Below are positions 1,804-25,176 of a DNA stretch of 64,000 nucleotides, in pieces (the stretch's first letter is position 1; the number at the start of each line of letters is the position of its first letter). This stretch comes from Minisyncoccota bacterium (GTDB taxonomy: Bacteria > Patescibacteriota > Minisyncoccia > Phycocordibacterales > JACRKE01): positions 609,768 to 673,767 of the forward strand of contig JBAZWG010000001.1 in NCBI GenBank assembly GCA_041660505.1. The letters run 5' to 3'. Under the pieces are notes generated by a model. It was not told the DNA's origin, made no database searches, and saw only the letters and a list, made by a program, of their open reading frames with translations. The position numbers were made by a program, and so were the translations under genes.

Positions 1804-3053
1804 TGTCTGACATATTACAAAAAGCGAAGCACATTCACTTCGTCGGCATCGGCGGGATTGGCATTTCTGCAATTGCTCGGATGATGCTTGCTGAAGGGCG
1901 GATGGTGACGGGGTCAGATACGCATGCTTCGCATGTCACTGATGAGCTTTCTAAATTAGGGGCGGTTATCACTTTTGACCAGAGTACACAGACTATTCCT
2001 GCCACGACTAATCTGGTTATTTATACCGCGGCGATACCTGTTGCTGACGTGTCATTTTTTGAGGCGATGAAGGCACTGCCTGTTCCTTCACTTTCTTACC
2101 CCGAGGCACTGCGCGAAGTAACCAAAGAGAAGTTTACTATCGCAGTGGCCGGCACTCATGGCAAGACGACGACGACTGCCATGATTGCAAAGGTTATGAT
2201 GGATGCCGGGCTTGACCCCACTGTCATCGTCGGCTCTATACTCCTTGACCATAAAAGCAATTTTATCGCTGGTAAAAGCAAATATCTAGTAGTAGAAGCA
2301 GATGAATATCAGCGCGGATTCTTGAATCTCTCACCGCACATCTTGGTCATAACCAATATCGGTGTTGATCATTTGGATTATTATAAGGATTTAGCAGAAA
2401 TTCAAGCAACGTTTGACGAATTGGTTGCGCGGGTCACACCGGGTGGTCACGTGATAAAACCGGCAGACTGGTCGCTTGTTAATCCGCCAAAACAATTATT
2501 GATTCCCGGTTTGCATAATAGGCAGAACGCGCAGGCCGCGCTTGCCGTTGCGGAGGTATTAGGAATATCGCGAGAAAAGGCTGAAGCATCGCTCGCAAAC
2601 TTCCAAGGTACTTGGCGCAGATTTGAATATAAAGGCACGACCAAAGAAGGAGCATTGGTCTATGACGATTACGCACATAATCCAGACAAAGTCAGAGCGG
2701 CTCTGCAGGGTGCAAGAGAAAAGTTCCCGGATCGGAAAATCATTGCAGTATTCCAACCCCACTTGTATAGCCGAACCAAGTCGCTTCTCCCACAGTTCGC
2801 GGAAAGTTTTAACGATGCTGACGAAGTCTTTCTCGTTCCTATTTACGGCGCTCGCGAGTCTCTTGACCCGACGATTACGGCAGAGATGCTCGCAGAAGCA
2901 TTGCGCATACATCACGAGCGCGTGTTCGTCTTCCCTGATTTCGAAGCGGTGGAAACATATCTCCACACCATACTTACTCCCGAGTGCGTCGTGATGATGA
3001 TTGGTGCCGGAAGTATTACAGAGCTGGCGAGTAAACTTATTGCAGAAAAATAA
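1794..3053 (+). CDS. murC: UDP-N-acetylmuramate--L-alanine ligase
   Basis: HFVGIGGIGISAIA N-terminal motif; GTHGKTTTTAMI P-loop; RBS GGAGG upstream; 419 aa. Confidence 0.88.
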   Translation: MEVMSDILQKAKHIHFVGIGGIGISAIARMMLAEGRMVTGSDTHASHVTDELSKLGAVITFDQSTQTIPATTNLVIYTAAIPVADVSFFEAMKALPVPSLSYPEALREVTKEKFTIAVAGTHGKTTTTAMIAKVMMDAGLDPTVIVGSILLDHKSNFIAGKSKYLVVEADEYQRGFLNLSPHILVITNIGVDHLDYYKDLAEIQATFDELVARVTPGGHVIKPADWSLVNPPKQLLIPGLHNRQNAQAALAVAEVLGISREKAEASLANFQGTWRRFEYKGTTKEGALVYDDYAHNPDKVRAALQGAREKFPDRKIIAVFQPHLYSRTKSLLPQFAESFNDADEVFLVPIYGARESLDPTITAEMLAEALRIHHERVFVFPDFEAVETYLHTILTPECVVMMIGAGSITELASKLIAEK

Positions 3054-3054
3054 T

Positions 3055-3744
3055 ATGGCTACATTATATATAGTCGCCACGCCGATAGGCAATCTCGAAG
3101 ATATCACCCTTCGTGCTATCAGAATTCTAAAAGAAGTCGACACCATTGTCTGCGAAGATACGCGCGTGACGAAAAAGCTTTTAGAAAAATATCTGGACAA
3201 CCCAAAAAGAGTTTTGTCGTTCCATGCCCATAGTGATGAAGGTAAGGTGACAGAGCTTATTACATTACTCACTGAAGGCAAGTCGGTAGCACTCGTAACA
3301 GACGCGGGGACGCCTGGCGTGTCAGACCCGGGTTCACGGCTCGTCTCGGCTGTACGCAAAGAGTTTGGTGATGAAGTGCGTACAGAACCAATTCCCGGCC
3401 CATCGGCAATCACCACGGCACTTTCTGTCGCCGGAATCGAGGCTTCGGCATTTACTTTCCTCGGATTCTTGCCACACAAGAAAGGAAGAGAGACGTTATT
3501 TAACGAAATAAAAAATAGTGAACGCACGATGATATTTTATGAGTCATCTCACAGGATATTGAAGACCATAGAACGACTCGCCGAACTCTTGAGCGAGACG
3601 CGAAAAGTGGTAATTGCCCGCGAACTGACGAAAAAATTCGAAGAAATCATCTCCGGTACGCCGGCAGAGGTGCTCGCGAAGATGAAAGAGACTCCGGACA
3701 GAGAAAGGGGCGAGTTTGTCGTATTGGTCGGTCCTCTGGTATAA
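3055..3744 (+). CDS. rsmI: 16S rRNA 2'-O-methyltransferase RsmI (tetrapyrrole-methylase fold)
   Basis: MATLYIVATPIGNLEDITLRA...VCEDTR is the typical RsmI N-terminus; start moved to the ATG at 3055, 2 nt after the murC stop. Confidence 0.8.
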   Translation: MATLYIVATPIGNLEDITLRAIRILKEVDTIVCEDTRVTKKLLEKYLDNPKRVLSFHAHSDEGKVTELITLLTEGKSVALVTDAGTPGVSDPGSRLVSAVRKEFGDEVRTEPIPGPSAITTALSVAGIEASAFTFLGFLPHKKGRETLFNEIKNSERTMIFYESSHRILKTIERLAELLSETRKVVIARELTKKFEEIISGTPAEVLAKMKETPDRERGEFVVLVGPLV

Positions 3745-3764: not shown

Positions 3765-3977
3765 ATGCATAAACTGAACCACATTTGGCAAAATAGACTC
3801 GTGACCATCCTCGGCTTCATTGTCCTTGTATTGCCACTTACCGGCTTCCCGCACAGTTGGACAGATAACTTTTATTTTTTACTCGGCTTAGCTATCGTCA
3901 TCATCTCATTCCAGCTCGGCAGATTCTTGGTCTATGGCGAAGAGCATGGCGAAAATAATGTTAAAGGGAAAAAATAA
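3765..3977 (+). CDS. small two-helix membrane protein (hypothetical)
   Basis: 70-aa ORF with two hydrophobic helices; overlaps the next gene start. Confidence 0.3.
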   Translation: MHKLNHIWQNRLVTILGFIVLVLPLTGFPHSWTDNFYFLLGLAIVIISFQLGRFLVYGEEHGENNVKGKK

Positions 3978-5322
3978 GATACTCGCACTCGCCTTAGCTG
4001 GGCTCTTTGCGGGCTTTGTTCTTATTGGGGGAGCTTCTCGCCTGCCTTTTATCAGCAAATATCTGCAAGCGAGCAGTGTTTACGTACGCGATACACCAGA
4101 GCCGATAGCAATAAAAGTTGCTTCTACAACGCAAGATCAAGCCAAGTTTGCCTTTATCGCGCCGGTAGTTGCATTACACGAGCCGCGGCCGGAAAAATTG
4201 AAGGCGATATATATATCAAGCTGGTCGGCCGGCTCGGCGACACAGATGAAGCGTCTCATCGGCCTTATAGATCGCACAGAAATAAATGCCGTCGTAATAG
4301 ATATTAAAGATGCGACAGGCGAGATCGCCTTCCATGTGAACGATCCGGCGCTTAAGGCGATGGGCACGGAATCCAATCGCATCGGCAATATAGATAGTCT
4401 TATCAAAGAGCTTCATGCTAAAAATATTTACGTCATCGGCCGAGTCTCGACCTTCCAAGACCCGCTCTTCGCCAAGATCCATCCAGAACTTGCGGTCATT
4501 CGCAAAAGCGATGGCAAATTTTGGCGCGATAGGAAAGGTTTAAGCTGGCTTGACGCCGGCGCCAAGAAGACTTGGGACTATATTATTGCAATAGCGAAAG
4601 AATCTTACTCAAGAGGCTTTGACGAAATTAATTTCGATTACATCCGCTTCCCCTCGGATGGGAATATGAAAGATATCGCCTACAGATTTTATGACGAGGC
4701 CAAACTTACTAAACCGGCGCAAATGAAATTATTTTATGAATATCTGCACAATGCGATGCAAGATAGCCCCACCCCCAACCCCTCCCCGAAGGAGAGGGGA
4801 GGAATATTTTCAAGCGACCAAGGTCTCTCCTCAAGGAGCGAAGCGGGAAGAGGTGAGTCCTTGGTCTCCACCGCCATCCCGCACTCCGCCGACCTCTTCG
4901 GTATGACCACAACCGCCGACGATGATATGGGTATCGGCCAGATGCTGACTGACGCGCTCCCATACTTCGACTATATTTGCCCGATGATATATCCATCGCA
5001 TTACGGCCCGGGCATCAACGGTTACAAAAAGCCGGCGCAATATCCGTACGAAATGGTGGCGTATGCCCTTGAAGGCGCTCTTGCTAAAGCCTCCTCGACC
5101 GACAAGTGGCAAGGTGAGTCCTTACCTAAAGGGGAAGGTCTCTCCTTGCCACCAAGCTATAAAAAAATCGTCCCATGGCTCCAAGACTTCGACATGGGCG
5201 CCACCTACGACGCAGGTATGGTAAGAGCCCAAATAAAAGCGACAGAAGACGCCGGCCTAACGAGCTGGTTACTGTGGGATCCTGCAAACAGATACACAGA
5301 GGGGGCTTTGCAGAAGGAATAG
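3934..5322 (+). CDS. putative glycoside-hydrolase-like TIM-barrel protein (GHL/DUF187-like), membrane anchored, with in-frame low-complexity insertions
   Basis: N-terminal TM anchor; motif GFDEINFDYIRFPSDG recalled from GHL-type putative glycosidases; contains the in-frame repeat that encodes SPTPNPSPKERGGIF. Confidence 0.5.
   Translation: MAKSMAKIMLKGKNKILALALAGLFAGFVLIGGASRLPFISKYLQASSVYVRDTPEPIAIKVASTTQDQAKFAFIAPVVALHEPRPEKLKAIYISSWSAGSATQMKRLIGLIDRTEINAVVIDIKDATGEIAFHVNDPALKAMGTESNRIGNIDSLIKELHAKNIYVIGRVSTFQDPLFAKIHPELAVIRKSDGKFWRDRKGLSWLDAGAKKTWDYIIAIAKESYSRGFDEINFDYIRFPSDGNMKDIAYRFYDEAKLTKPAQMKLFYEYLHNAMQDSPTPNPSPKERGGIFSSDQGLSSRSEAGRGESLVSTAIPHSADLFGMTTTADDDMGIGQMLTDALPYFDYICPMIYPSHYGPGINGYKKPAQYPYEMVAYALEGALAKASSTDKWQGESLPKGEGLSLPPSYKKIVPWLQDFDMGATYDAGMVRAQIKATEDAGLTSWLLWDPANRYTEGALQKE
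4771..4803. repeat. GC-rich palindromic element copy (CCCCTCCCCGAAGGAGAGGGG family), in-frame inside a CDS
   Basis: Same core as copies at 18383, 21061, 41002 and 41047; here it encodes PNPSPKERGG. Confidence 0.75.
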
Positions 5323-5405
5323 AAACGAAACAGCCAGCTCCCATGAAAAATCAGGAACTGGCTGTCCGGCTTGATAGGCAAAAAACTTGAGTCGACGGGA
5401 ATCTG

Positions 5406-6953
5406 TCAGACCGTCGACGGATACTTCTGCTCCACGTCTCGATCGTGGAGTTGTTTGATGATTTCTTCGATCGCCCCATACTGCTCGGGTGAGACCGTCG
5501 AGACGTTCGGGGTTATGATCAGGGGCTCCTCGCACGTTTCGTGGTAGCCCCAATCTGGGTGTACCCCGAACTTCTGCTTCAACGACCGGAAGGCCGCCAC
5601 CGTGAACTTCCCGATTATCCATCGGGCAATGTCCTCGATGTTCTGGTTCTTCCGAAAGCTGAACTGCGGGTACTGCGTCGTGAGCTCTAGGATGAAGTCG
5701 CCCGGCGTCCGTGTTCTCGTCTGCCCGAGCTGGCGAGCGCACGACCAGATCTTCGCAATCTTCAAGTTCTGGTCCCTTTTGCCGACCATTCGGCGAATGA
5801 GGACCAGATAGTAGATCCCGATCTGAACAACCCGATTGTACGTCGGGGTGCTGAACGACACACCCTTGTCTTCCGCCACCTGCTTCACCTCGCGGTGCAG
5901 GATCTTGTTCGTGTGGTAGACGTGCTTCCAGTAACGGAAGGTGTCCACCCCGAACATTGTCCTGGCCCGGCCTGCTGCGTGGATGATGCCGTTACAGCAG
6001 GAGAGGAATCCCTCCGGAGTGAAGAAGAGTGCGTGCTTCGTGAGAAGCGCGTGGTTCTGGTCGATATCCCTACAGTTCATGTAGTGGACGATGTCCCAGA
6101 TCTTGAGCTTTTCCACGCCGTCCGCGTCGACGCCGAGCTCGGCCGCAACCACCCAGATGTTCGTCACCTGGGGGCCGCAGACTATGTCCTTGTCGGTGAG
6201 GGGCAGTTCGGCCCAGAGGATTCGCTCAACGAGCCTGATGGAAATGGCTTTCAGTTCCTCTTCCGACAGCCACTCTGGTGGCGGAATAACCCTGAGCACG
6301 ATCAAGTAGACATAGATCTTCAAAAACAGCCTTGCGACTCCTCCTTTGTATCCAGTCTGCTTGACCTTGAAGCGGGCCGTTTCGTCCGATTCTCCCTTCT
6401 TGCGAGTGGGGAAGCGGATGTCGACCACCGCCGTTTCGATCGCCTCCCTCATCTCCTTGTTGGGGATCTGGGGGATGCTGTCGACGACCAGCTTGGTCGG
6501 TACCTCGCGGTACGTTCCAAACTTGATCTCCTCTTCTGGAACGACAACGACAGAGAGCCCCTTGACCTGCTCGATGACCTTCTTGGCGAAGGCCTCTTCA
6601 GGTTTGTCGGTGCTTTCCTCTTCTTCCTCCGAAGGCATCGCCGGCGTCTTCAGGCCGGAGTCGTGTGCCATTTCCCGAAGAAGGTTGAACGAGCAACTCA
6701 TGATCCTTCGGATCTCTTCCTGGATCTCGGTGGGGAGATTGCAGGCCCGCATATCCCGGAGGACAATGCGGATGAGACAGAGAAAGCGTGCGAACAACCC
6801 GAAGGTGTTCCGCGCCTTCTTCATCCCGTCAACGATGATCTCCTTGTACTCGTCAAACTTGTGGACGAGCTTCCAGCGCGTTTCGTCTGGATAGATGTAT
6901 CGTCGTTCCGAGTCCATTTCTACCTGATTAACCTCTGTTTCCGTGGTTCCCAT
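5406..6953 (-). CDS. hypothetical protein (515 aa), GC-rich
   Basis: Long ORF with codon-biased GC-rich composition and no recognised motif; GGGAAC hexamer repeats at its start codon. Confidence 0.6.
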   Translation of the reverse strand: MGTTETEVNQVEMDSERRYIYPDETRWKLVHKFDEYKEIIVDGMKKARNTFGLFARFLCLIRIVLRDMRACNLPTEIQEEIRRIMSCSFNLLREMAHDSGLKTPAMPSEEEEESTDKPEEAFAKKVIEQVKGLSVVVVPEEEIKFGTYREVPTKLVVDSIPQIPNKEMREAIETAVVDIRFPTRKKGESDETARFKVKQTGYKGGVARLFLKIYVYLIVLRVIPPPEWLSEEELKAISIRLVERILWAELPLTDKDIVCGPQVTNIWVVAAELGVDADGVEKLKIWDIVHYMNCRDIDQNHALLTKHALFFTPEGFLSCCNGIIHAAGRARTMFGVDTFRYWKHVYHTNKILHREVKQVAEDKGVSFSTPTYNRVVQIGIYYLVLIRRMVGKRDQNLKIAKIWSCARQLGQTRTRTPGDFILELTTQYPQFSFRKNQNIEDIARWIIGKFTVAAFRSLKQKFGVHPDWGYHETCEEPLIITPNVSTVSPEQYGAIEEIIKQLHDRDVEQKYPSTV

Positions 6954-7090
6954 GGTTCCCTCCTAGGTTCCCGGTTCCCGTTCCCGTATTCCTTTTTTGC
7001 CTATTTATTTGCCAAAGACCGATACACTGCCTATTTTTAGGCTAGGTTGACATGCTAGCATAAATTAGAGCTGTTTCCCAGAGAAATTAT

Positions 7091-7119
7091 TTGCATAATC
7101 GTCAAATTAGTGCTATTAT
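7091..7119 (+). promoter_or_regulatory. promoter TTGCAT-N17-TATTAT (extended TGc -10) for rnc
   Basis: -35 at 7091-7096 and -10 at 7114-7119 preceded by TGC; the RBS GGAAGG precedes the ATG at 7172. Confidence 0.5.
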
Positions 7120-7171
7120 ACAAAGTAATATTCGATTCCAGAAACGCTGTTTGAAAAAAGGAAGGTGATTA

Positions 7172-7870
7172 ATGTCCGAAACCAGAGAAGAGTTGCAGGT
7201 GCGGCTCGGCATCAAGTTCAATAATCCAGAGTTGCTGGCCGAGGCCCTTCGGCACAAGTCAGTCTCGCCACTCGGCAAGAAAAACAAACCGCAACCGCCG
7301 TATGAACGACTCGAATTCTTCGGCGACGCTGTGATTGACTACGTCGTGAGCAAGCGCCTTTTCCGGCGAAGCCCGCCACTGTCTCAAGGGCGCATGACCC
7401 AGGCGTTCACGAGCCTCGCTTCGCGTATGGCGCTTGGTGAGCTGGCAGAGGAAATAGACCTCTTCCCTCACATCGAGTTCTGCCCTGGCTTTGGCGACAA
7501 CATGTCTATCGAGTTGAGACATAATGTCGTCGGGGACGTCTATGAGGCTCTCGTCGGTGCCATCCACGAGGACCAGGGCTTCGAGACTGCTGAGAATTTC
7601 GTCGAACGCACGGCCATGGCGAAACTCGATGAACTGCTCGCCGGCAAGAACCTTCTCGACCACAAGAACCAGCTTTCTCGGTTCTTGCAGGGTCGTCATC
7701 ACAAGAGAGTCTACCCAGAGTACCAGCTCATCGGGCGTAAGTCTGATGGCGTCTACGTCTCTCAAGTGAGTCACGACGGCAAGAACCTCGGCCAAGGCGA
7801 AGGCAAGACCCAGACCGCCTCAGAGCTCAATGCCGCCAAGGAGGCGCTCGAGATTCTCAAGAAGCGGTAG
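7172..7870 (+). CDS. rnc: ribonuclease III
   Basis: RNase III signature ERLEFFGDAV; DVYEALVGAI; C-terminal dsRBD-like region. Confidence 0.85.
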   Translation: MSETREELQVRLGIKFNNPELLAEALRHKSVSPLGKKNKPQPPYERLEFFGDAVIDYVVSKRLFRRSPPLSQGRMTQAFTSLASRMALGELAEEIDLFPHIEFCPGFGDNMSIELRHNVVGDVYEALVGAIHEDQGFETAENFVERTAMAKLDELLAGKNLLDHKNQLSRFLQGRHHKRVYPEYQLIGRKSDGVYVSQVSHDGKNLGQGEGKTQTASELNAAKEALEILKKR

Positions 7871-7957
7871 CGGATTCACATCCGCTCGGAAATCTACACG
7901 ATTCGTTCGTGGGAAAACATCCGGGTGGGTGTTTTCTTTTTCCTATAAAAAAATTAT

Positions 7958-7986
7958 TTGCTGTTAAGTTTTGCCTGTGTTATAAT
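7958..7986 (+). promoter_or_regulatory. promoter TTGCTG-N17-TATAAT
   Basis: Consensus spacing; sits upstream of the small basic ORF, which has RBS GGAAGGAG. Confidence 0.5.
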
Positions 7987-8075
7987 CATGAACTTCGCAA
8001 ACGCGAGGTGCTCAAAGTACGGCACCCGCGTCCGCGGAGTGTTATGTTCTTTGAGCTGAATGGAAGGAGAATGCC

Positions 8076-8294
8076 ATGTCTCTCACTCAACGGGAGTTCA
8101 GGAAGAACCTCGTCAAGGCCAAGAAGGCCAAGAGGATTCGGAAAATCAAGGAGAAGAGGCGCGCTTTGCGCGCTAAGAATGGCCAGCCGTCGCCGAATGG
8201 CGTGAAGCCTGCACGGGTGTCGCTCCCGCACATGAGCGACACCCTGCCTGTGCCGGCGGCCATGTTGGCTCAGCCGGCCCAGTCCGACCAGTGA
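8076..8294 (+). CDS. small Lys/Arg-rich basic protein (hypothetical)
   Basis: 72-aa ORF with a good RBS, followed by a hairpin plus T-run terminator at about 8307-8400. Confidence 0.5.
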   Translation: MSLTQREFRKNLVKAKKAKRIRKIKEKRRALRAKNGQPSPNGVKPARVSLPHMSDTLPVPAAMLAQPAQSDQ

Positions 8295-8306
8295 CCTTCC
8301 TAGTTC

Positions 8307-8400
8307 AGCAGTTCGCACCCCCGGGTGATTTTAATCTCGCGACTCACAGCGCGGGAGAGGGACACCGGGGGTGTTTCTTTTTTCTCCGGAATTTTCAAGA
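8307..8400 (+). terminator. intrinsic terminator (GCACCCCCGGGTG...CACCGGGGGTG plus T-run)
   Basis: Long GC stem followed by TTTCTTTTTTCT. Confidence 0.55.
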
Positions 8401-8546
8401 TTAGTCTTTTTCCGAAATTTGTTTTCTTATTTTTAAAACCGTTAGCGCGTTACTTTTTTTGTGTTAGACTCCGCATGATACAGAGACCAACTACTGAAAC
8501 AGACACGCGCCTTTGAACGGTGCATTTGACAAGGAGGAATGACAGC

Positions 8547-9404
8547 ATGAGCAATGGAACGTTGGTTGATCCAGTGAGTCCAGAAGAGTACCACCGGGCG
8601 AGGCAGAAGTTGCAAGAATTCTTTACCAAGAAGGGTCTCACCTGGGCGGTCGCTCAGCAGAGGCTCTCAATTCTCTCGGCCTGCGAGAACCATCTCTCCA
8701 TCGCGCTCCACGCATTTGCCGGCCAGACCTGGCCACTCCATCAGACGAACCAGATGGAGTTGGAAAAGATGCTCTTGGAGAACCAGGGGTCGACGGGCTA
8801 TTTCTGCGACACGACCTCGTATCGCGAGGAACCGACCCCCAAGAAGGGCAGGCACAACCTGATCTTCCCTATGGTGGAGTTCGAGCTCCCAGGGAACTTC
8901 GAGGTGCTCCTGGCCTTCCTGCAGGATCTCGTCCAGCACCTCGGATTCGTCAAGGCGCCGGCCCCCGTCGTTGACTACCGCGACTACGCCAAGAAGTGCG
9001 GAGTCGAGGAGCTCGGCGATGAACACGAAACCCAACTCTTCCGCGAGCTCGGTCCGGTCGTGATGCTCGTCGACTTCCCGATGAGCACCTCGCCGTTCTG
9101 GAACATGCGGCTCGACGGCGGTCCCGGCGAAAAGATCGCACGAAAGTGCGACGTCATCGTCTGCGGACAGGAGACGATCGGTAGCGCCGAGCGCTCTTGC
9201 GATCCCGAGCAGATGCGGAAGTCCTTCCGTGCAGTCTCTGGTGGAGACTACGCGAGGACGCTCTTCGCACGCTTCTGCAGCGGGCGGGTCCTGGAGGAGT
9301 TGGAAGACTTCCTCTCGCTTCCGTTCTTCCCGCGCTGTGGCGGAGGAATCGGGATGACCCGGCTCATCCGGGCTACACGGATGGTCGGCCTCATTGACAA
9401 GTAG
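8547..9404 (+). CDS. class II aminoacyl-tRNA synthetase catalytic-core paralog (EpmA/AsnA-like, no anticodon-binding domain)
   Basis: Class IIb motif 2 YREEPTPKKGRHNLIFPMVEFEL and motif 3 GGGIGMTRL; about 285 aa, so the catalytic core only; RBS AAGGAGG 8 nt before the ATG at 8547. Confidence 0.65.
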   Translation: MSNGTLVDPVSPEEYHRARQKLQEFFTKKGLTWAVAQQRLSILSACENHLSIALHAFAGQTWPLHQTNQMELEKMLLENQGSTGYFCDTTSYREEPTPKKGRHNLIFPMVEFELPGNFEVLLAFLQDLVQHLGFVKAPAPVVDYRDYAKKCGVEELGDEHETQLFRELGPVVMLVDFPMSTSPFWNMRLDGGPGEKIARKCDVIVCGQETIGSAERSCDPEQMRKSFRAVSGGDYARTLFARFCSGRVLEELEDFLSLPFFPRCGGGIGMTRLIRATRMVGLIDK

Positions 9405-9420
9405 TACGGTCAACCTAGAA

Positions 9421-9455
9421 CCGGCTCCCTTCGTTCGCGAAGGGAGCCGGTTTCG
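9421..9455 (+). terminator. hairpin terminator CCGGCTCCCTTC-GTTCGC-GAAGGGAGCCGG followed by TTTCG
   Basis: Perfect 12-bp stem right after the aaRS-like gene. Confidence 0.55.
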
Positions 9456-9468
9456 CGTCTGCCTAGCA

Positions 9469-9512
9469 TTAGAAGGTTCAACCTTTTTGATGCTTAAGGT
9501 TGAACCTTCTTG
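9469..9512. repeat. AAGGTTCAACCTT / AAGGTTGAACCTT double-palindrome hairpin element (family copy a)
   Basis: Arms AGAAGGTTCAACCTT and AAGGTTGAACCTTCT are perfect reverse complements. Confidence 0.7.
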
Positions 9513-9583
9513 TGCGTTATAAAACGAAAAGGGGATCGCGACCTTGCGGTTGCGACCCCCTTTTGAACCAGATGAAAGCAGGA

Positions 9584-10189
9584 TTACTTCTTGCCCTTGC
9601 CGACGTCCATACTCACGGGGATGTCGGCTTCGCAGAACGAGCACTCCTCCGATGCCCATGAGTCGAGAGTGATGTTCACTAGCGACTCAAGCCTCGGCGC
9701 GCCAATATCGAAAGCGGTGACGCCTCCGCGATTGCAGATAGCGCCCACGCCCACGACCTCGCCGCCGATGGCGCGGACGACCTCGACGACCTTCTTCACC
9801 GAGCCGCCGGTCGTCAGGACATCCTCGACGACGAGCACTGTCTTGCCAGCCACGATCTTGTCGTAACCGCGCTTCACTACGAACCCGCCGTCGGCCGACT
9901 TCTCGGCGTAGACACTCATTGCGTCTGAGTGTACGAGCTCCGAGAGTTGATAGGCCACCCATTGGGAGAGGATGAGCCCGCCCATCGCGGGCCCGACGAC
10001 CACCTGCGGTCGTTCTGCCAAGAAGCGGCCGGCCAGGTACAGGCAGAGCTCGCCCGTCAACCTAGGATGCACGTAAATCGCATCCTTGTTGATGTACCTG
10101 TTGCCGTGCCGGCCACTTGTGTAGACGAAGTGGCCCTCGAGTAAGGCACCCACTGCCTTGATCTTCTCCATGACACTGACTTCTTTCAT
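9584..10189 (-). CDS. pyrE: orotate phosphoribosyltransferase
   Basis: PRTase motif VLVVEDVLTTGGS; start set at MKEVSVMEKIKAV, since the ORF track start is further upstream. Confidence 0.78.
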   Translation of the reverse strand: MKEVSVMEKIKAVGALLEGHFVYTSGRHGNRYINKDAIYVHPRLTGELCLYLAGRFLAERPQVVVGPAMGGLILSQWVAYQLSELVHSDAMSVYAEKSADGGFVVKRGYDKIVAGKTVLVVEDVLTTGGSVKKVVEVVRAIGGEVVGVGAICNRGGVTAFDIGAPRLESLVNITLDSWASEECSFCEADIPVSMDVGKGKK

Positions 10190-10205
10190 GAGACCTCCTT
10201 GCGGG

Positions 10206-11021
10206 TCATGATCGGTATCGGTTGATTGCGTCATGCAGTCGCTGCGTCTCGCGTCGCGCCGCCTCTGCGAAGTTCTGTCCGCCACCGGCGAAGATGATGC
10301 TCCGTGAGGCGGCAATGATCATGCCTTGACCCCGCGAGTCTTTGCCAGCAGCGACGGTCGCTTCGAGATCTCCGCCTTGCGCGCCGATACCCGGGACGAG
10401 GATTGGCATGTCGCCGACAATCTTGCGCACGGCGCGCAGTTCGTCGGGATATGTTGCGCCGACGACCACGGCACAGTTGCCGTTCTCGTTCCATGCGCAT
10501 GCAACGTTCAGGGCGACCACTCGGTAGAGCGGCACGCCGCCGACGAGCAGATTCTGGAATTCGCCGGCGCCGACATTTGACGACCTGCAGACGATTATAC
10601 AACCCTTGTCCTTCTGGGCGAGGAATGGCTCGAGAGCCTCCTTGCCGAAGTAAGGGTTCAGGGTGACGGCGTCGGCGTGCAGGTATCCGAACGCTTGCTC
10701 GACGTAGCCGACATTGGTGTTGCCAATGTCGGCGTACTTGGCGTCCAAGATGATCGGCACCTCGGGGGCGATGGCATTCGCCTCCGAGACGGTGTGATAG
10801 AGCGCGAGGATGCCCTCGATGCCTTGTGCCACGTAGAAGGCCAAATTGACTTTGTACGCGCAGACGAGGTCGCTGGTGTGCTCGATGATGGCGCGGTTGA
10901 ACGCGCGAATCCTATCGAGCTTCGACGGGTACTTGACCTCCGCCGGGATCTTGCCGAGCTCGCTGTCGAGTCCGACGCAGACGCTCTTGCCTTGCTCCCA
11001 CCGAGCCTTGAGCATCTCCAT
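10206..11021 (-). CDS. pyrF: orotidine 5'-phosphate decarboxylase (long type 2 form)
   Basis: ILDAKYADIGNT matches the OMPdecase DxKxxDIxNT motif; about 270 aa from MEMLKAR. Confidence 0.75.
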   Translation of the reverse strand: MEMLKARWEQGKSVCVGLDSELGKIPAEVKYPSKLDRIRAFNRAIIEHTSDLVCAYKVNLAFYVAQGIEGILALYHTVSEANAIAPEVPIILDAKYADIGNTNVGYVEQAFGYLHADAVTLNPYFGKEALEPFLAQKDKGCIIVCRSSNVGAGEFQNLLVGGVPLYRVVALNVACAWNENGNCAVVVGATYPDELRAVRKIVGDMPILVPGIGAQGGDLEATVAAGKDSRGQGMIIAASRSIIFAGGGQNFAEAARRETQRLHDAINRYRS

Positions 11022-11164
11022 GAAGTTTCTGGTCTTCAAATTCTGCCTCGCTTTCACTTGGTTCAATGAACAGTATGAGCCGGACTATCCGGCTCAAAAT
11101 CTCCTTGACACTATCAAAAATATAGTTAGAAATCAAGCTCGAAAATTTGCGGGAAATTATTTTT

Positions 11165-11210
11165 AAAACAAAAACAGGATGCCGGCTACAGAGAGCTTGC
11201 ATCCTGTTCG
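11165..11210 (-). terminator. intrinsic terminator after pyrD (CAGGATGC..GCATCCTG plus TTTTTGTTTT on the minus strand)
   Basis: 8-bp stem, T-run on the minus strand. Confidence 0.5.
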
Positions 11211-11230
11211 AGCGAACATTACCGGACGAG

Positions 11231-12124
11231 TCATTCGTCGGTGAGTTCGCTAAGGATCGATGAGAATATGGTCTCGCCCCGCTCCAGATAAGCGGTGGCG
11301 ATTTGCACGGCCGAGGCACCGGCCAAGATGTACTCGCGCACGCCGGTGCTATGGATAATGCCGCCGACGCCTATGAGTTGCTGGGTGCTCGGCAGGAGCG
11401 CACGCAGTTGCCTGACCTGCCCCAGGCCGATAGGCTTTAGTGCCGGGCCGGCCATGCCCGCGAGTCCTCCGGCTGGAGTGATTCGTGGCGCTTCACCATT
11501 GAGGCCGAAGGCGTTGGGAAAGGTGTTGACGGTTGTGACCGCCTTCACCAACTTCGACTTGCCGATCACCTCCGCCACTTGCGCAAGTTGGAAAGGGTCG
11601 GAGTAAGGCGAAACCTTACACGCGATCTTCGCCTCGGCTCCGACCCACGTTTCTACCTGTCGCAAGATGTTCGCAACAAGCACGGGGTCGAAGCAGGCAA
11701 TCCGCTTCTGCATCCCGCCCTGCCAGACGTTGGGACAGCCGAGGTTGAGCTCGACCATGTCGGCCCCGCCGGCGAAGGCGATCTTAGACATTATCGCGTA
11801 CTCCTCGGCCGAGAAGCCGGCGATACTCACGAAGAGTGGCTTGCCATGCGCATGTGCCTCCGCCACCATCGCGGGCAGTTTGAGCCCATAGTACTCTATC
11901 CCTCTATTCGGCAAGCCGAGAGAGTTTAGCGAGTAATCTGACTCTACCCAGTACACGTTGCCACCGTTGCCTTGACGAGGCTCCATGGTGATAGAGCCGA
12001 CCATGATGGCCGCGGTGGCAGAACGGGCGAGCTGGCTTACCTCCTCCAGCAGCCGGCAGGTACCCGCCGCGTTCATGAGCGGGTGCTCAAGCGGGATACC
12101 GGCGAGCGTAGTTTCAAAGTTCAT
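11231..12124 (-). CDS. pyrD: dihydroorotate dehydrogenase, class 1
   Basis: ELNLGCPN motif and TIM-barrel FMN-binding profile; RBS AAGGAGG before the ATG. Confidence 0.82.
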   Translation of the reverse strand: MNFETTLAGIPLEHPLMNAAGTCRLLEEVSQLARSATAAIMVGSITMEPRQGNGGNVYWVESDYSLNSLGLPNRGIEYYGLKLPAMVAEAHAHGKPLFVSIAGFSAEEYAIMSKIAFAGGADMVELNLGCPNVWQGGMQKRIACFDPVLVANILRQVETWVGAEAKIACKVSPYSDPFQLAQVAEVIGKSKLVKAVTTVNTFPNAFGLNGEAPRITPAGGLAGMAGPALKPIGLGQVRQLRALLPSTQQLIGVGGIIHSTGVREYILAGASAVQIATAYLERGETIFSSILSELTDE

Positions 12125-12217
12125 GTGACCTCCTTAAGGTCTTTTTTTGTGCTCGTTATTCTCTTTATGCTGTATGTAAGTTAACAAATATGACCTGTTT
12201 TATCAACACAAAAAAAC

Positions 12218-12246
12218 TTGCATAAAGACGCAATCTGTGCTATTAT
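12218..12246 (+). promoter_or_regulatory. promoter TTGCAT-N17-TATTAT (gTGcTATTAT extended -10), same architecture as the rnc promoter
   Basis: Exact spacing; followed by a 110-nt leader and RBS GAGGAGGG before the ATG at 12355. Confidence 0.5.
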
Positions 12247-12354
12247 CCATACCAGCTTGCTACCGTCCCTGATTACTTCAGGGTATGTTGCGGGAGCAAA
12301 TGAGACAGAACGCCCCAGAAAAATCTAGAGCGTTTTGTGTTTAGAGGAGGGACA

Positions 12355-12555
12355 ATGTCCTCGGTCTTCCACCCTACGGATCTGCTCGTCTTTCCCGCGC
12401 ATACCGAGCATGCGCGGCTGATTCTGCTCGCAGTTTGCGAGCATGAGGACGAGAAGATCCACTTCGAGGCGGCTCGGGCCGCAGACGTTCCCGTGCTTGT
12501 CGCGCTCTGCGACGTGTACGGGATTCCCCACACGGTCCAGCAGGAGGTGAGGTAA
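12355..12555 (+). CDS. small hypothetical protein, first of a coupled pair
   Basis: RBS plus ATG at 12355; stop overlaps the next ATG (TAAGATG). Confidence 0.4.
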   Translation: MSSVFHPTDLLVFPAHTEHARLILLAVCEHEDEKIHFEAARAADVPVLVALCDVYGIPHTVQQEVR

Positions 12556-12556
12556 G

Positions 12557-12760
12557 ATGGGACGACCCCCTTTCCGCACCACCGGCAGATACAGGTCACC
12601 GGCCGTTCAGCCGGAGAAGCCCATTGGCCGCTTCGGCAACGAGGATCCGCGGATTCTGCTGAACGAGCAGGAGCCGGCGGATCCCGAGGCCCAGCGCCGG
12701 GCCAACGTCCTCATGGGGCGCGACCCGGATGAGAAGGACCCTGGGCCGCCCCTCCTCTGA
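12557..12760 (+). CDS. small hypothetical Pro/Arg-rich protein, second of the coupled pair
   Basis: Tightly coupled to the upstream ORF; followed by an imperfect hairpin plus T-run at about 12790-12840. Confidence 0.4.
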   Translation: MGRPPFRTTGRYRSPAVQPEKPIGRFGNEDPRILLNEQEPADPEAQRRANVLMGRDPDEKDPGPPLL

Positions 12761-12935
12761 CACTCCCGCAACACTCGGTAAAGATCGCCCCGGTTCGCGC
12801 GTACACCATACGCTGCGAGCCGGGGCTTTCGACTTTTTATACACTTTGCGCTAGATATCTTTTATAGTATAGTAAATAGAATATTTATCTGCCTCTACGG
12901 CAGACCGCCGATGAGGCGGTTAATAAGAATAATTT

Positions 12936-13403
12936 ATGAATAATCGCAACATTGCAATTGTCATAGCCATCATCGTCATAATTATCCTCGGATACTTTAT
13001 GTTTTCGAAGAAGGCAGTGACCGCACAGAACGGCTCGGTTGTTACAGTTAATTACGTCGGCTCGCTCCAGAACGGCACCAAGTTCGATGCCTCGGCAGAT
13101 CACGGCGGTCCGCTCACACTTACACTCGGCCCTATTGGTCCGAACGGTGAAGGCTACGTCATCCCGGGTTGGGAAGAGGGACTTATCGGTATGACAGTCG
13201 GAGAGAAGAAGCACCTCGTTATTCCGCCGGAGAAAGCTTACGGCGACAAGCAGATGGGCCCTATCCCGCCGAACTCGACTCTTGTCTTCGATGTAGAAAT
13301 GCTTGATATCCAGCCAGCCGGCCCGAAGCCAGTAGAGCCTCATTTCCCACCGGCACCGGCCTTGGCCCAGCCAGAAACACAGGGCACAACTACAACGCAG
13401 TAG
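12936..13403 (+). CDS. FKBP-type peptidyl-prolyl cis-trans isomerase with N-terminal membrane anchor
   Basis: VTVNYVGSLQNGTKFD...GYVIPGWEEGLIGMTVGEKKHLVIPPEKAYG...LVFDVEMLDI is the canonical FKBP domain. Confidence 0.82.
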   Translation: MNNRNIAIVIAIIVIIILGYFMFSKKAVTAQNGSVVTVNYVGSLQNGTKFDASADHGGPLTLTLGPIGPNGEGYVIPGWEEGLIGMTVGEKKHLVIPPEKAYGDKQMGPIPPNSTLVFDVEMLDIQPAGPKPVEPHFPPAPALAQPETQGTTTTQ

Positions 13404-13423
13404 CCCACTGGCAGAGGTTCGAC

Positions 13424-13449
13424 CTTAGGCATTCAAAAGGTCGAACCTC
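13424..13449. repeat. hairpin element variant GAGGTTCGACCTT...AAGGTCGAACCTC (family copy b)
   Basis: Perfect 13-bp inverted repeat about 85 nt upstream of rpsN. Confidence 0.6.
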
Positions 13450-13532
13450 AAGAATGCATGCCAATACTTGCGTTAAGCCGTATAATTTGATAGTATTTCA
13501 TTCAAGCTCTTACGTAGAGCTTGAATGCTTTT

Positions 13533-13718
13533 ATGGCAAAAACATCAGTAATCGCGCGTTCGAAAAAGACGCCTAAATTCTCGACCAGATTGGTCCGCCG
13601 CTGTTTCCGTTGCGGTCGCAAGCGCGGCTACATGCGCGACTTCGACGTTTGCCGAATTTGCTTCCGCGAGCTAGCGAATGAAGGCATGATCCCGGGCATC
13701 CGGAAGTCAAGCTGGTAA
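13533..13718 (+). CDS. rpsN: 30S ribosomal protein S14 (zinc-binding type Z)
   Basis: MAKTSVIARSKK...CFRCGRKRGYMRDFDVCRICFRELA, CxxC...CxxC, 61 aa. Confidence 0.88.
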   Translation: MAKTSVIARSKKTPKFSTRLVRRCFRCGRKRGYMRDFDVCRICFRELANEGMIPGIRKSSW

Positions 13719-13728
13719 AATAATGACA

Positions 13729-13769
13729 AGAAGGTTCAACCTTTAAGATGCCCAAGGTTGAACCTTCTA
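13729..13769. repeat. AAGGTTCAACCTT double-palindrome hairpin element (family copy c)
   Basis: GAAGGTTCAACCTT-TAAGATGCCC-AAGGTTGAACCTTC; ends about 15 nt before the rpsH start. Confidence 0.7.
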
Positions 13770-13783
13770 GACAAAAATATTTC

Positions 13784-14182
13784 ATGACCATCGACCCATT
13801 AGCAAACATGCTCATCCAGATCAAGAACGGTAGCGTCGCCAAAAAGGAGACGATTACCGTGCCTTTGTCTAACATGAAGTTTGCTGTCGCAGAAGTTCTT
13901 AAGCGCGCCGGATTCGTGAAGGACACAGCCAAGCGCGGCAAGAAAGAGAATCGCTCATTCGAGATTGACTTGGCTTACACAACAGAAGGCGAGCCGAAGG
14001 TCACGGGCGTGGAGCGCATCTCCAAACTTTCGCGCCGAGTCTATGCCGGCGCCGGCGAGATTCGCAACTTGCGCCGAGGTAAGCCTGGTATGATGATACT
14101 CTCGACACCGAATGGTATCCTGACAGCATCGGAGGCCAAGAAAGCGAATGTTGGCGGGGAAGTTTTGTTCGCCATTTGGTAA
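13784..14182 (+). CDS. rpsH: 30S ribosomal protein S8
   Basis: MTIDPLANMLIQIKNG is the S8 N-terminus; the ORF-track start at 13748 lies inside the repeat, so the start was moved to 13784. Confidence 0.88.
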   Translation: MTIDPLANMLIQIKNGSVAKKETITVPLSNMKFAVAEVLKRAGFVKDTAKRGKKENRSFEIDLAYTTEGEPKVTGVERISKLSRRVYAGAGEIRNLRRGKPGMMILSTPNGILTASEAKKANVGGEVLFAIW

Positions 14183-14228
14183 TGGCTCACAGATTTAAAC
14201 ATTTCAAGATTTAAATATTTAAAAACTC

Positions 14229-14765
14229 ATGTCACGCGTCGGCAAACAAATTATCGAAATACCCGCAAAAGTTGAGGTTACGCTCAGCACCGGTACGATG
14301 CGCATCAAAGGACCTTTGGGCGAACTCACCAGAGAATTCAAAGACGACATCGAGATTACAATTGCCGACAAGCAAATTACACTTAAGCCGAAAGTCGAAA
14401 CGATTTTTACCCGCTCGCTCTGGGGCACATACGCCGCACACATCATCAACATGATCAAGGGCGTGACGGAAGGTTACATGAAGAAGATGACGATAGAGGG
14501 TGTCGGCTATAAAGTGGAGCTCAAAGGCACACAGCTCGTCTTCGCTCTCGGATTTTCTCACCCAGTACCGATGGATATCCCTAAGGGCATCAAAGCTGTT
14601 GTAGAGAAGAACGTTTTGACTATTTCCGGACCGGATAAAGATCTGGTCGGATTATTCTCCGCGCAGATTGTGGCGCACAAACCGCCGGAGCCGTACAAGG
14701 GTAAGGGTATAATTTACGCCGGTACTGTCGTCCGCAGGAAGCAGGGGAAGAGGTCTGTTGCTTAA
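14229..14765 (+). CDS. rplF: 50S ribosomal protein L6
   Basis: MSRVGKQIIEIPAKVEV..., two-domain L6 profile, 178 aa. Confidence 0.9.
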   Translation: MSRVGKQIIEIPAKVEVTLSTGTMRIKGPLGELTREFKDDIEITIADKQITLKPKVETIFTRSLWGTYAAHIINMIKGVTEGYMKKMTIEGVGYKVELKGTQLVFALGFSHPVPMDIPKGIKAVVEKNVLTISGPDKDLVGLFSAQIVAHKPPEPYKGKGIIYAGTVVRRKQGKRSVA

Positions 14766-14769
14766 CGGC

Positions 14770-14813
14770 TTAGAAGGTTAAACCTTCTAGATGCCCAAGG
14801 TTTAACCTTCTAA
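14770..14813. repeat. AAGGTTAAACCTT double-palindrome hairpin element (family copy d)
   Basis: TTAGAAGGTTAAACCTTCTAG-ATGCCC-AAGGTTTAACCTTCTAA, perfect 17-bp arms; the 44-mer is identical to copy e. Confidence 0.75.
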
Positions 14814-14826
14814 GACAAGACAAAAC

Positions 14827-15177
14827 ATGAAAACAACAAATTCAAAAAAATTAAAACGAGACCGACGCCACACGAAGATCAGGACGCGCGTTTTTGGTAC
14901 GTCTGCCAAGCCTCGCCTCGCAGTCTTCCGTTCCAACGCTTTCGTCTACGCACAGATTATCGATGATGAGGCGGGCAAGACACTTTTGGCCGCGAGCGAC
15001 CTCAAAATGAAAGATGGGACCAAGCTTGCGCGCGCAGAAAAAGTGGGCGAGACGATAGCTGTGGCTGCCAAGGCGAAGAAAATCGGTACTGTTGTATTTG
15101 ATCGCGGCGGATTCATCTACGCCGGACGCGTTAAGGCTGTTGCCGATGCCGCACGTAAAGGAGGATTGCAATTCTAA
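14827..15177 (+). CDS. rplR: 50S ribosomal protein L18
   Basis: [28 protein letters not shown]... is an L18 profile. Confidence 0.9.
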
Positions 15178-15213
15178 AGTTGAAAGTCAAAAGTATAAAG
15201 TTCATAAAGTAAA

Positions 15214-15879
15214 ATGGAAGACACTACAAAAAAAACAGAATCAGCAGTTCCTACGCCGAAGCCAGCCGGTAGCCCGATTTACGTACCCAAGGAGCCTTCA
15301 AGAAGCTATCAAGGACAAGGCGGCCCGCGCAATTCGAGCGGTCCTCGCACGGGAGGTGCTCCGGGGGGAGGTCAAGGAGGCTTCGGCGGACAGCGCGGAG
15401 GTCCGCGCGGTCAAGGTGGCCGAGGCGGAGACAGGCGTGCACCGCGCACACCTTCGGAATACGATCAGAAAATTTTGAACATTCGCCGTGTGGCGCGTGT
15501 TGTGGCCGGTGGCCGTCGCTTCACTTTCTCTGTCGCTATGGTGCTCGGCAACCGCAAGGGTTCTGTCGGCGTCGGTGTCGGCAAGGCGGGAGATACGACC
15601 TTGGCTATCGACAAAGCTTCGCGTGTTGCCAAGAAGCACATGATCAAGCTCAACCTGACGAAGGACAAATCCATCGCTCACGAAATCACCGAGAAATACT
15701 CAAGCGCGACAGTAATGCTCCGCCCGGCCAAGGGTAAGGGGCTTGTTGCCGGCAGTGCTGTGCGCTCTGTGCTCGAGCTCGGCGGTGTAACAGACACGAC
15801 AGCGAAGATTCTTTCACCGTCGAAGAACAAATTGAACATCGCGCAAGCGACGATAAAGGCACTGAACAAACTCAAATAA
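15214..15879 (+). CDS. rpsE: 30S ribosomal protein S5 with Gly/Arg-rich N-terminal extension
   Basis: Conserved S5 core ILNIRRVARVVAGGRRFTFSVAMVLGN...; unusual about 80-aa GGRGG/GQRGG low-complexity N-terminus. Confidence 0.9.
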   Translation: MEDTTKKTESAVPTPKPAGSPIYVPKEPSRSYQGQGGPRNSSGPRTGGAPGGGQGGFGGQRGGPRGQGGRGGDRRAPRTPSEYDQKILNIRRVARVVAGGRRFTFSVAMVLGNRKGSVGVGVGKAGDTTLAIDKASRVAKKHMIKLNLTKDKSIAHEITEKYSSATVMLRPAKGKGLVAGSAVRSVLELGGVTDTTAKILSPSKNKLNIAQATIKALNKLK

Positions 15880-15888
15880 TTTTAACGA

Positions 15889-15933
15889 CTTAGAAGGTTA
15901 AACCTTCTAGATGCCCAAGGTTTAACCTTCTAA
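15889..15933. repeat. AAGGTTAAACCTT double-palindrome hairpin element (family copy e, identical to copy d)
   Basis: Identical 44-mer and nearly identical downstream spacer CTAAGACAA(G/A)ACAAAACATG. Confidence 0.75.
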
Positions 15934-15942
15934 GACAAAAAC

Positions 15943-16374
15943 ATGCAATCCCACGAACTCAAGCGCAAACATCCGAATAAACGAACCAAGCTCGTTGGCC
16001 GTGGCAGTAAGCGCGGTAAGACGTCCGGTCGCGGTACCAAAGGCCAGAACGCCCGCGCCGGTCACAAAAAACGCCCCGAAATTCGCGAGCGTATCAAGAA
16101 GATTCCTAAACTCCGCGGTTATCGCTGGAACGGTGCTATTATGGACAAGGCGATTGTCATTAATGTCGGCGACCTGAACAAGTTCGAGGCCGGCGCCGAG
16201 GTTACCCCGCGCACGCTCGTGAAGAAGCATCTCATCAATATGCCGAAGGATGCGCGCATGATTGTGAAGATTCTTGGCGGAGGCGAAATCAAGCTTGCCT
16301 ACAAAGTTTCTCACTGCTTCGTCTCGAAGAGTGCAAAAGAGAAGATTGAGAAAGCGGGAGGAACAGTGAAATAA
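15943..16374 (+). CDS. rplO: 50S ribosomal protein L15
   Basis: KRTKLVGRGSKRGKTSGRGTKGQNARAG is the L15 N-terminus; it follows S5 directly, so no L30 gene is present. Confidence 0.9.
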   Translation: MQSHELKRKHPNKRTKLVGRGSKRGKTSGRGTKGQNARAGHKKRPEIRERIKKIPKLRGYRWNGAIMDKAIVINVGDLNKFEAGAEVTPRTLVKKHLINMPKDARMIVKILGGGEIKLAYKVSHCFVSKSAKEKIEKAGGTVK

Positions 16375-16434
16375 TGAACTCGGAAGCCTTGCTTCTGAGA
16401 ACAAGACCCGGAAGCGAGGCTTCCAAGTACAAAA

Positions 16435-17706: not shown

Positions 17707-17719
17707 AGAATCAAGCGAA

Positions 17720-17756
17720 AAGGTTCAACCTTAAGTATCAAAAAGGTTGAACCTTA
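17720..17756. repeat. AAGGTTCAACCTT double-palindrome hairpin element (family copy f)
   Basis: AAGGTTCAACCTT-AAGTATCAAA-AAGGTTGAACCTT between secY and adk. Confidence 0.7.
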
Positions 17757-17781
17757 GAATTCCGCTTGATACAATATTCAC

Positions 17782-18378: not shown

Positions 18379-18382
18379 GGCG

Positions 18383-18418
18383 CAACCCCTCCCTCGCCCT
18401 CCCCGAAGGAGAGGGAAA
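18383..18418. repeat. GC-rich palindromic element copy (CCCTCCCTCGCCCTCCCCGAAGGAGAGGG), intergenic adk/map
   Basis: Same core CCCTCCCCGAAGGAGAGGG as the in-frame copies. Confidence 0.75.
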
Positions 18419-18422
18419 ATTC

Positions 18423-21512: not shown

Positions 21513-21513
21513 T

Positions 21514-22122: not shown

Positions 22123-22169
22123 TTGCCGACACTATATACCTTTCATTCGATTTGCGCCACATTTTTATG

Positions 22170-22550: not shown

Positions 22551-22595
22551 CGAAGATATTATACCCAAATTAACGTTCGGTCAAATCGCTTTTTG

Positions 22596-25154: not shown

Positions 25155-25176
25155 TAATGATTGATATTGCGCCGGA

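Follow-up and report, generated by a model that had tools for sequence, protein, structure and literature searches.

Two described systems are among the closest to the locus considered here. The genomic islands of Prochlorococcus are flexible-genome islands gained by recombination in the core flanks. Transfer of metabolic genes among lineages of the Candidate Phyla Radiation (CPR) has been argued from phylogenomic surveys of CPR metabolism. The locus lies in a 64-kb stretch of DNA from a Minisyncoccota bacterium (contig JBAZWG010000001.1 of assembly GCA_041660505.1, positions 609,768 to 673,767; hereafter the window, to whose first letter all window coordinates refer), where a GC-rich block carries the pyrimidine genes pyrD, pyrF and pyrE. 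An earlier note made from the sequence suggested that this block may be a laterally acquired metabolic module. The DNA at 5.3-12.2 kb is an accessory genomic island at a hypervariable site, most likely gained laterally from another, GC-richer CPR lineage; the acquisition part of the suggestion is supported, by synteny more than by composition, but the cargo is a mixed gene set and not a pyrimidine module. The island resembles those of Prochlorococcus in its atypical composition, in the presence, absence and replacement of genes at one site, and in its accessory metabolic cargo. It differs in having no tRNA target, integrase or repeats, in residing in a CPR host of ~0.7 Mb, and in that native small open reading frames (ORFs) nearby share its excess of G and C at third codon positions (GC3). 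Like the transfers surveyed in CPR lineages, it has a patchy distribution and its closest homologues lie in other CPR bacteria; unlike them, it can be traced to one event at a known insertion site, which is empty in some relatives and holds a non-orthologous counterpart in another.

Evidence from synteny supports lateral acquisition more strongly than does composition. Relatives were found by searching for ribosomal protein L6 (nine clusters, 75-88% identical), and those with a SecY 81-89% identical to that of the window keep the flanks MurD-MurC-DUF4015 and FKBP-S14-S8-L6-SecY. In the window, the left flank is a DUF4015 gene (3934-5322, plus strand; PF13200), which is colinear and 64% identical in L114 and 60% identical in L117. 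The right flank is an FKBP gene (12936-13403, plus strand; PF00254), colinear in L114, L117, L121 and L122 and followed by S14-S8-L6-L18-S5-L15-SecY-Adk-Map. Between these syntenic cores, the variable island extends from the stop codon of the DUF4015 gene to the start of a small ORF, sm66 (5323-12354), with the inserted genes spanning 5406-12124. The relatives L114, L115 and L116, which represent one lineage in three samples (SecY 89%, L6 85%), have none of the seven block genes at the site; their order is MurD-MurC-g70-DUF4015, about 0.5 kb, two small ORFs, and FKBP-S8-L6 through to Map. In L117 (SecY 81%), the DUF4015 gene is followed by a 508-amino-acid (aa) homologue of a nucleotidyltransferase (NTase)-like gene of the island, a 504-aa gene, a 189-aa gene, small ORFs and FKBP, and this insert is partly GC-rich (0.58-0.65 vs 0.47-0.52). 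L121 (SecY 84%) has an unrelated ORF immediately before FKBP. L122 and L124 (SecY 84%, L6 76%), the sole related lineage to have pyr genes at the site, carry pyrD-pyrF-pyrE, a 358-aa gene resembling asparaginyl-tRNA synthetase (AsnRS) and a 312-aa gene, followed by FKBP-S14-S8-L6. Given five contents in five related lineages, the site is hypervariable.

The identity of these genes bears on an alternative explanation, in which the block consists of old residents of a recombination-prone locus that were lost or replaced in the relatives, with a GC3 excess that is local and due to GC-biased gene conversion or gene-specific selection. We consider this rather unlikely. L122 does place pyr and AsnRS-like genes at the site in another lineage of the clade, and the L117 insert at the same site is GC-rich too. 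However, the L122 genes are not orthologous to those of the window: PyrD, of another subtype, shares 24% identity, PyrE belongs to another type and shows no detectable similarity, PyrF is 55% identical and the AsnRS-like protein 25%, so that the window set cannot descend from the L122 cluster. The L122 pyr and AsnRS-like genes also have a GC3 of 0.44-0.49, the same as their own flanks. Likewise, the 508-aa protein of L117 is only 28% identical to the 515-aa protein of the window, and its gene lies in the opposite orientation, while the flanks are 60-81% identical. There is also a phyletic gap: in one collection of 5.8 billion proteins, L6 matches reach 88% identity and no PyrD match exceeds 69%. 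A scan of GTDB with L6 found nearest species representatives 52-63% identical, none of which has this site.

Comparison with the relatives also redefines the right edge of the block, which had been placed at 12.85 kb. The two small ORFs next to FKBP, sm66 (66 aa, 12355-12555) and sm67 (67 aa, 12557-12760), both on the plus strand, are native and conserved beside FKBP in relatives: sm66 matches L114_84, which in turn matches L117_67, and sm67 matches L117_66. No family matches them, and their homologues have a GC3 of 0.60-0.85 in every lineage, even island-free ones. Upstream lies a native promoter with the conserved 5' leader of the small-ORF cassette (12218-12354, plus strand), and the same promoter, hairpin, GTTGCGGGAGCAA box and short terminator-like stem are found in L114 and L117. 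The leader is ~100 nt long, and promoter and leader correspond to 8047-8166 in L114 and 8059-8179 in L117. Across these three sequences the hairpin varies by lineage with pairing kept by eye (CCCTGA..TCAGGG vs GTCCGC..GCGGAC), and a search of the block, leader included, against Rfam at E values up to 1 gave no match. Downstream of the small ORFs, a GC hairpin terminator upstream of FKBP (12763-12831, plus strand) is native as well, with 84% DNA identity over 70 nt to L114 8615-8684. Since the small ORFs, leader and terminator are all conserved in relatives, the inserted DNA corresponds to about 5323-12200, and the actual edge lies at about 12.2 kb.

The same comparison changes the reading of the promoters, which had been described as the block's own. 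The quoted strings exist: TTGCAT-N17-TATTAT occurs at 7091-7119, upstream of the RNase III gene (rnc), and at 12218, and TTGCTG-N17-TATAAT occurs at 7958-7986, upstream of a gene for a 72-aa protein. A terminator hairpin follows rnc (7911-7938), and a GC hairpin with a T run follows the 72-aa gene (about 8318-8385). A sigma-70-like promoter string stands before each island unit, of a type also found upstream of the relatives' native small ORFs, and a hairpin follows most units. However, the promoter at 12218 is kept in relatives that lack the block, which indicates that the promoters are of host type, and a generic promoter and terminator scan gave nothing above chance.

The composition of the block, for which the 64-kb window was the only reference, sets it apart from its surroundings. 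Binned GC, GC3 and raw tetranucleotide distance all confirm that it is GC-richer than the neighbouring DNA. The window averages 50.3% GC; the block at 5400-12850 has 56.7%, vs 49.4% in the remainder, and the island as defined by synteny (5323-12354) has 0.561, vs 0.496 for other window DNA. In 1-kb bins GC ranges from 0.51 to 0.61 across the block, with the maximum of 0.60-0.61 at 9-11 kb, and at 300-bp resolution coding GC is 0.55-0.65 with AT-rich intergenic dips of 0.41-0.49; the ribosomal operon has 0.49-0.53. The figure of ~60% given previously thus applies to the part with the pyr and synthetase-like genes, while the block as a whole has about 57%. The compositional shift sits at synonymous sites. 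The GC3 of eight block genes is 0.72-0.81 (pooled 0.772), compared with 0.564±0.090 and a maximum of 0.749 for the 49 other genes of the window (Mann-Whitney p = 4e-9), and the observed GC3 running mean was not reached when gene order was shuffled 100,000 times. Codons ending in G or C are commoner in the block for all 18 amino acids with synonymous codons. The raw tetranucleotide distance between block and the rest of the window is 0.287, the maximum among 6.8-kb segments (0.172±0.044).

Several findings weigh against a foreign origin. After correction for lower-order composition the tetranucleotide signature of the block is only mildly atypical, and thus near-native (r 0.64 vs 0.69±0.07); the strongest corrected outlier in the window is not the block but the segment at 24-34 kb. 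The native ORFs sm66 and sm67 equal the island in GC3, both in the window and in L114, where the small ORFs reach 0.77-0.85 with no island present. Homologues of the NTase-like gene exceed the GC of their hosts in three lineages, and PyrD exceeds the GC3 of its flanking genes in L002 and L004. These observations also favour old residence with a local GC excess. As native small ORFs reach the same GC3 without an island beside them, high GC3 alone is no proof of foreign origin. The composition signal, unlike the synteny result, could well stem from a local or exchange-linked process that raises GC. The GC3 excess of PyrD is not general, however: in a comparison with flanking genes at 31 loci, z ranged from −3 to +5 and was about 0 or negative in many, and the idea that PyrD is a general GC island in CPR genomes was rejected. 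Outside composition, orthologues in the flanks share only 56-89% identity between the window and L114, so that a PyrD at 69% could in principle be the orthologue from an unsampled close relative. The best matches to island genes are only 68-79% identical, and no donor is among them. Scans with Pfam, NCBIfam and PHROG found no mobility domain, integrase or transposase in the block. Hallmarks of defence systems and of phages are lacking as well. No significant border repeats or att sites were found at the island edges, and the sole tRNA lies at 62-136, with none at the borders. For the island as a whole, loss in relatives instead of gain here may account for the pattern.

The abrupt change in composition would also be expected if the block were an assembly or binning chimera with a co-occurring GC-richer organism, and contigs from the Logan assembly of the same run (SRR18595301) do break between the AsnRS-like gene and pyrE. 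A chimera is nevertheless extremely improbable. Two independently assembled contigs of this run cover the junctions: L113 spans the left one (DUF4015-NTase) and L001 the right one (pyrD-small ORFs-FKBP-S14-S8-L6), each with 100% protein identity. The presence of both junctions on independent contigs argues against a chimera, as does the rnc promoter (7091), which has TTGCATAA...GTGCTATTAT in common with the native promoter of sm66 at 12218.

Lateral gain thus remains the favoured explanation, and the homologues give some indication of the source. The nearest homologues of the island genes come from CPR bacteria, with different neighbours in each genome. Together with the near-native corrected oligonucleotide signature, this suggests that the donor was probably a CPR bacterium. 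The absence of an integrase, tRNA target and border repeats points to recombination in the conserved flanks as the likely route, and the island would then have arrived in this way rather than as a self-mobile element. Its cargo would comprise enzymes of uridine monophosphate (UMP) synthesis together with RNase III, a core-only AsnRS-like enzyme, an NTase and a small basic protein. The alternative that the window comes from a less reduced lineage is not supported by its source, a Paceibacterota metagenome-assembled genome (MAG) with a 719-kb contig, which is a typical reduced CPR genome and encodes a protein identical to the window PyrD.

ORF translations and searches of Pfam and NCBIfam confirm that pyrD-pyrF-pyrE, a class II aminoacyl-tRNA synthetase (aaRS) core and RNase III are present, as had been read from the sequence; the 515-aa NTase-like gene, the 72-aa gene and the two small ORFs at 12355-12555 and 12557-12760 had been missed. 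The gene pyrD (11231-12124, minus strand; GC3 0.74) encodes a class 1 (1A-like) dihydroorotate dehydrogenase that matches PF01180 at 9.7e-44. Its score against NF002702 (193.7 bits) is below the cut-off of 301, so the 1A subclass is a tentative assignment. The catalytic Cys130 in NLGCPN is nearly invariant, N67, N127, N132, K170 and N200 are conserved, and no pyrK adjoins pyrD among the neighbouring genes. The gene pyrF (10206-11066, minus strand, with a likely start at 11021 that gives 271 aa, as in the L001 gene call; PF00215; GC3 0.78) encodes an orotidine monophosphate (OMP) decarboxylase of subfamily 2, which passes the TIGR02127 cut-off of 110.6 with 211.1 bits. The gene pyrE (9584-10189, minus strand; PF00156; GC3 0.80) encodes a probable orotate phosphoribosyltransferase of the Thermus type, 201 aa in length both here and in the L001 gene call. 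It scores 148.4 bits against TIGR01367, ~2 below the cut-off of 150.25, and carries the phosphoribosyl pyrophosphate (PRPP)-binding motif VLVVEDVLTTGGS.

By family membership and conserved catalytic residues, the island would supply the last three steps of UMP synthesis: the predicted PyrD would convert dihydroorotate to orotate, the predicted PyrE would convert orotate and PRPP to OMP, and the predicted PyrF would convert OMP to UMP. These proteins share domain families and catalytic residues with the canonical de novo pathway, as represented by the class 1A dihydroorotate dehydrogenase PyrDa of Lactococcus lactis, PyrF of TIGR02127 and PyrE of TIGR01367. The island differs from the canonical pathway in covering only these three steps; carAB, pyrB and pyrC are not found among the scanned ORFs of the 64-kb window. 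A literature search on CPR pyrimidine genes found nothing relevant.

In the 5.8-billion-protein collection the window PyrD has best homologues of 63-69% identity, and nearly all of those with names belong to Patescibacteria. A neighbour-joining tree puts the window protein alone on a long branch, within a clade in which the named members are Patescibacteria. Branching of the pyr genes with vertical relatives, which the earlier note had named as a finding that would speak against transfer, is therefore seen in part: they group with CPR, but not with the close relatives of this genome. Of ~45 long PyrD loci in other genomes, none matches the window pyrD in its neighbours, and the aaRS core, RNase III and NTase are missing near pyrD in all of 80 PyrD loci. 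Given that the neighbours of pyrD differ in every other genome, the block is a mixed island and not a pyrimidine module, and the idea that it is a conserved module was rejected because its gene set is not repeated in the 80 loci. The order of the pyr genes themselves varies: L004 has pyrF-pyrD-pyrE and L002 has pyrD alone, compared with pyrD-pyrF-pyrE in the window.

Next to pyrE lies a gene for a stand-alone catalytic core of a class IIb aaRS of the AsnRS/aspartyl-tRNA synthetase (AspRS) type (8547-9404, plus strand, 285 aa; GC3 0.80). It matches PF00152 and phrog_29758 (E 2e-71), and has no NCBIfam match, including to AsnA and EpmA. In a profile search against the PDB, AsnRS was the best match (2.8e-9), with the archaeal AS-AR entries 1nnh and 3p8t at 1.4e-3 and 2.2e-3. 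The AlphaFold2 model is confident (pLDDT, predicted local distance difference test, 93.3), and its top Foldseek matches are AsnRS/AspRS cores with E values of about 1e-16. The regions read as motifs 2 and 3 contain invariant residues. The protein is not a canonical AsnRS: at 285 aa it aligns only to the catalytic part and has no N-terminal OB-fold anticodon-binding domain. In this it resembles the core-only class IIb paralogues (archaeal AS-AR 3p8t/1nnh, AsnA, EpmA/GenX and HisZ), which have the same ~280-330-aa core without an anticodon-binding domain and an AsnRS/AspRS-like fold. It differs from AS-AR in that the similarity reaches only an E value of about 1e-3, and in that it belongs to a large family of its own across CPR, giant viruses and phages. 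About 5,000 matches to this family come from the protein collection, and IMG/VR contributes at least 592 loci, many of them in giant-virus MAGs.

The viral distribution of this family raises another explanation, namely that the block was left behind by a phage or other mobile element, since an aaRS-like gene, RNase III and an NTase are typical cargo of large phages. Relatives of the aaRS core in Prochlorococcus myoviruses and in phages of 484-735 kb are 45-49% identical to the window copy, as close as the named Parcubacteria homologues, and RNase III matches phrog_28637. On the other hand, CPR homologues of the aaRS core, the named ones from Parcubacteria, are 50-79% identical and thus as close as the viral ones or closer, and the RNase III copies of phage records share only 26-33% identity with that of the window. 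No phage match was found for the NTase, and the block contains no structural, replication or integrase genes. The more specific idea that the pyr genes are phage-borne was rejected, as PyrD is missing from viral contigs save for one 30% match. A phage remnant is thus very unlikely.

The neighbours of the aaRS core were also compared across the family. The window copy adjoins pyrE (8547-10189). In two giant-virus-like lineages, represented by L127 (4380-7803)/L133 and by L204, the core adjoins a pyrE-pyrF fusion with pyrD nearby, and in L122 (1883-3771) a different AsnRS-like paralogue adjoins pyrE. Of the phage isolates with names in the collection, P-SSM2, P-SSM5 and P-SSM7 are alone in having the core, and the cyanophage-type PyrE is confined to the same three. 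A pyr gene lies near the viral aaRS core in only 2 of 80 loci, and the CPR copies of L110 and L125 have no pyr neighbours. A second kind of neighbour is a long (77-95 nt) tRNA-Asn(GTT), found directly downstream of the core in 14 of the 80 viral loci and in P-SSM2 and P-SSM7, on the same strand and about 10-170 nt past the gene. The phage loci recorded with this tRNA are L129, L130, L161, L163, L172, L182, L185, L186, L190, L191, L193, L196 and L210, and the Rfam tRNA model confirmed three of seven long tRNA-Asn tested. CPR copies of the core, including that of the window, have no tRNA alongside. A literature search found no published description of a phage AsnRS-like/tRNA-Asn pair.

We tentatively suggest, from sequence and gene neighbourhood, that the phrog_29758 family might be an uncharacterised enzyme tied to both tRNA-Asn and orotate/pyrimidine metabolism, though this is a doubtful proposition. 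The aaRS core may partner the phosphoribosyltransferase PyrE in the manner of HisZ, may supply dihydroorotate through ATP-dependent amide formation, or may be a minimal synthetase with its own dedicated tRNA.

The remaining island genes lie to the left of the aaRS core. The NTase-like protein of 515 aa (5406-6953, minus strand) matches no Pfam (including PF01743), NCBIfam, PHROG or PADLOC family. Its AlphaFold model has a confident fold (pLDDT 89.5), and Foldseek gave no match in the PDB. It is probably a nucleotidyltransferase that acts on RNA 3' ends, divergent but similar to class II CCA-adding enzymes and poly(A) polymerase; compared with such enzymes (1miv, 3h37, 4wby, 3aql), it has an additional long N-terminal helical domain. 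With 122 cluster representatives the family is small, and the few members that carry names are CPR. The closest homologue (68%) is in Candidatus Vogelbacteria L118 (8735-13619), two genes from FKBP and beside a Y1 (IS200-like) transposase, where its GC is 0.51-0.55 vs 0.45 in the surroundings. The neighbouring 504-aa protein of L117 and a 447-aa protein of L110 were ruled out as members of the family by a hidden Markov model search. RNase III with a double-stranded RNA-binding domain is encoded by rnc (7172-7870, plus strand; PF14622, PF00636 and PF00035; GC3 0.72). It scores 156.6 bits against TIGR02191, slightly below the cut-off of 166.25, and its translation contains ERLEFFGD, where the family signature is ERLEFLGD. 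The 72-aa protein (8076-8294, plus strand; GC3 0.81) is basic and bears no functional label; it was read from the sequence and is also a gene call on contig L113.

Other parts of the window differ between lineages as well. A second large indel relative to L114 lies at 19206-35900; in L114, homologues of window 35997-38919 come within about 1.4 kb of Map. Its genes include those for an fn3 protein, GH130 enzymes, a radical SAM enzyme and a histidine kinase, and an AT-rich stretch inside it (24.3-28.6 kb, GC 0.39-0.47) encodes a nucleotidyltransferase, EamA, an AdoMet decarboxylase and an LPG-synthase-like gene. The ribosomal cluster (13400-19184) starts at S14, with FKBP instead of L5 before it, and ends after Map without infA, rpsM and the genes that go with them. 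The break before S14 is common to L122 and L124, FKBP is directly upstream of S8 in L114, L117 and L121, and in the more distant Patescibacteria L007-L009 neither FKBP nor block genes lie upstream of S8. Another small indel is a TP_methylase (RsmI-like) gene at 3001-3744, between MurC and g70, which is missing there in L114 and L117. The DUF4015 protein has 462 aa, about 60 aa more than the 399-400 aa of L114 and L117, and its low-complexity stretches rich in Pro, Gly and Ser account for a local rise in GC at 4.65-5.3 kb. Two neighbouring genes at 58323-60824 (346 and 374 aa; GC3 0.75 and 0.69), which have no Pfam, NCBIfam or PHROG match, may be another compositionally atypical patch.

CPR bacteria are thought to be host-dependent for nucleotides. 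The locus is of a known kind, a genomic island with metabolic cargo, and what it adds is the comparison of empty-site and alternative-content relatives, a double installation and two uncharacterised enzyme families. On the reading favoured here, it shows a CPR genome of ~0.7 Mb gaining part of UMP synthesis through genes that arrived as cargo next to the ribosomal cluster, at a hotspot of gene flux. The genes pyrD, pyrE and pyrF and an AsnRS-like core have been installed at one locus twice, from different sources, and this double, non-orthologous installation argues for selection on the capacity itself. The two unannotated families, a CPR NTase and a very widespread AsnRS-like core that giant viruses and phages also have, could be approached biochemically at little cost, and the site offers a concrete place to follow gene exchange between CPR lineages.

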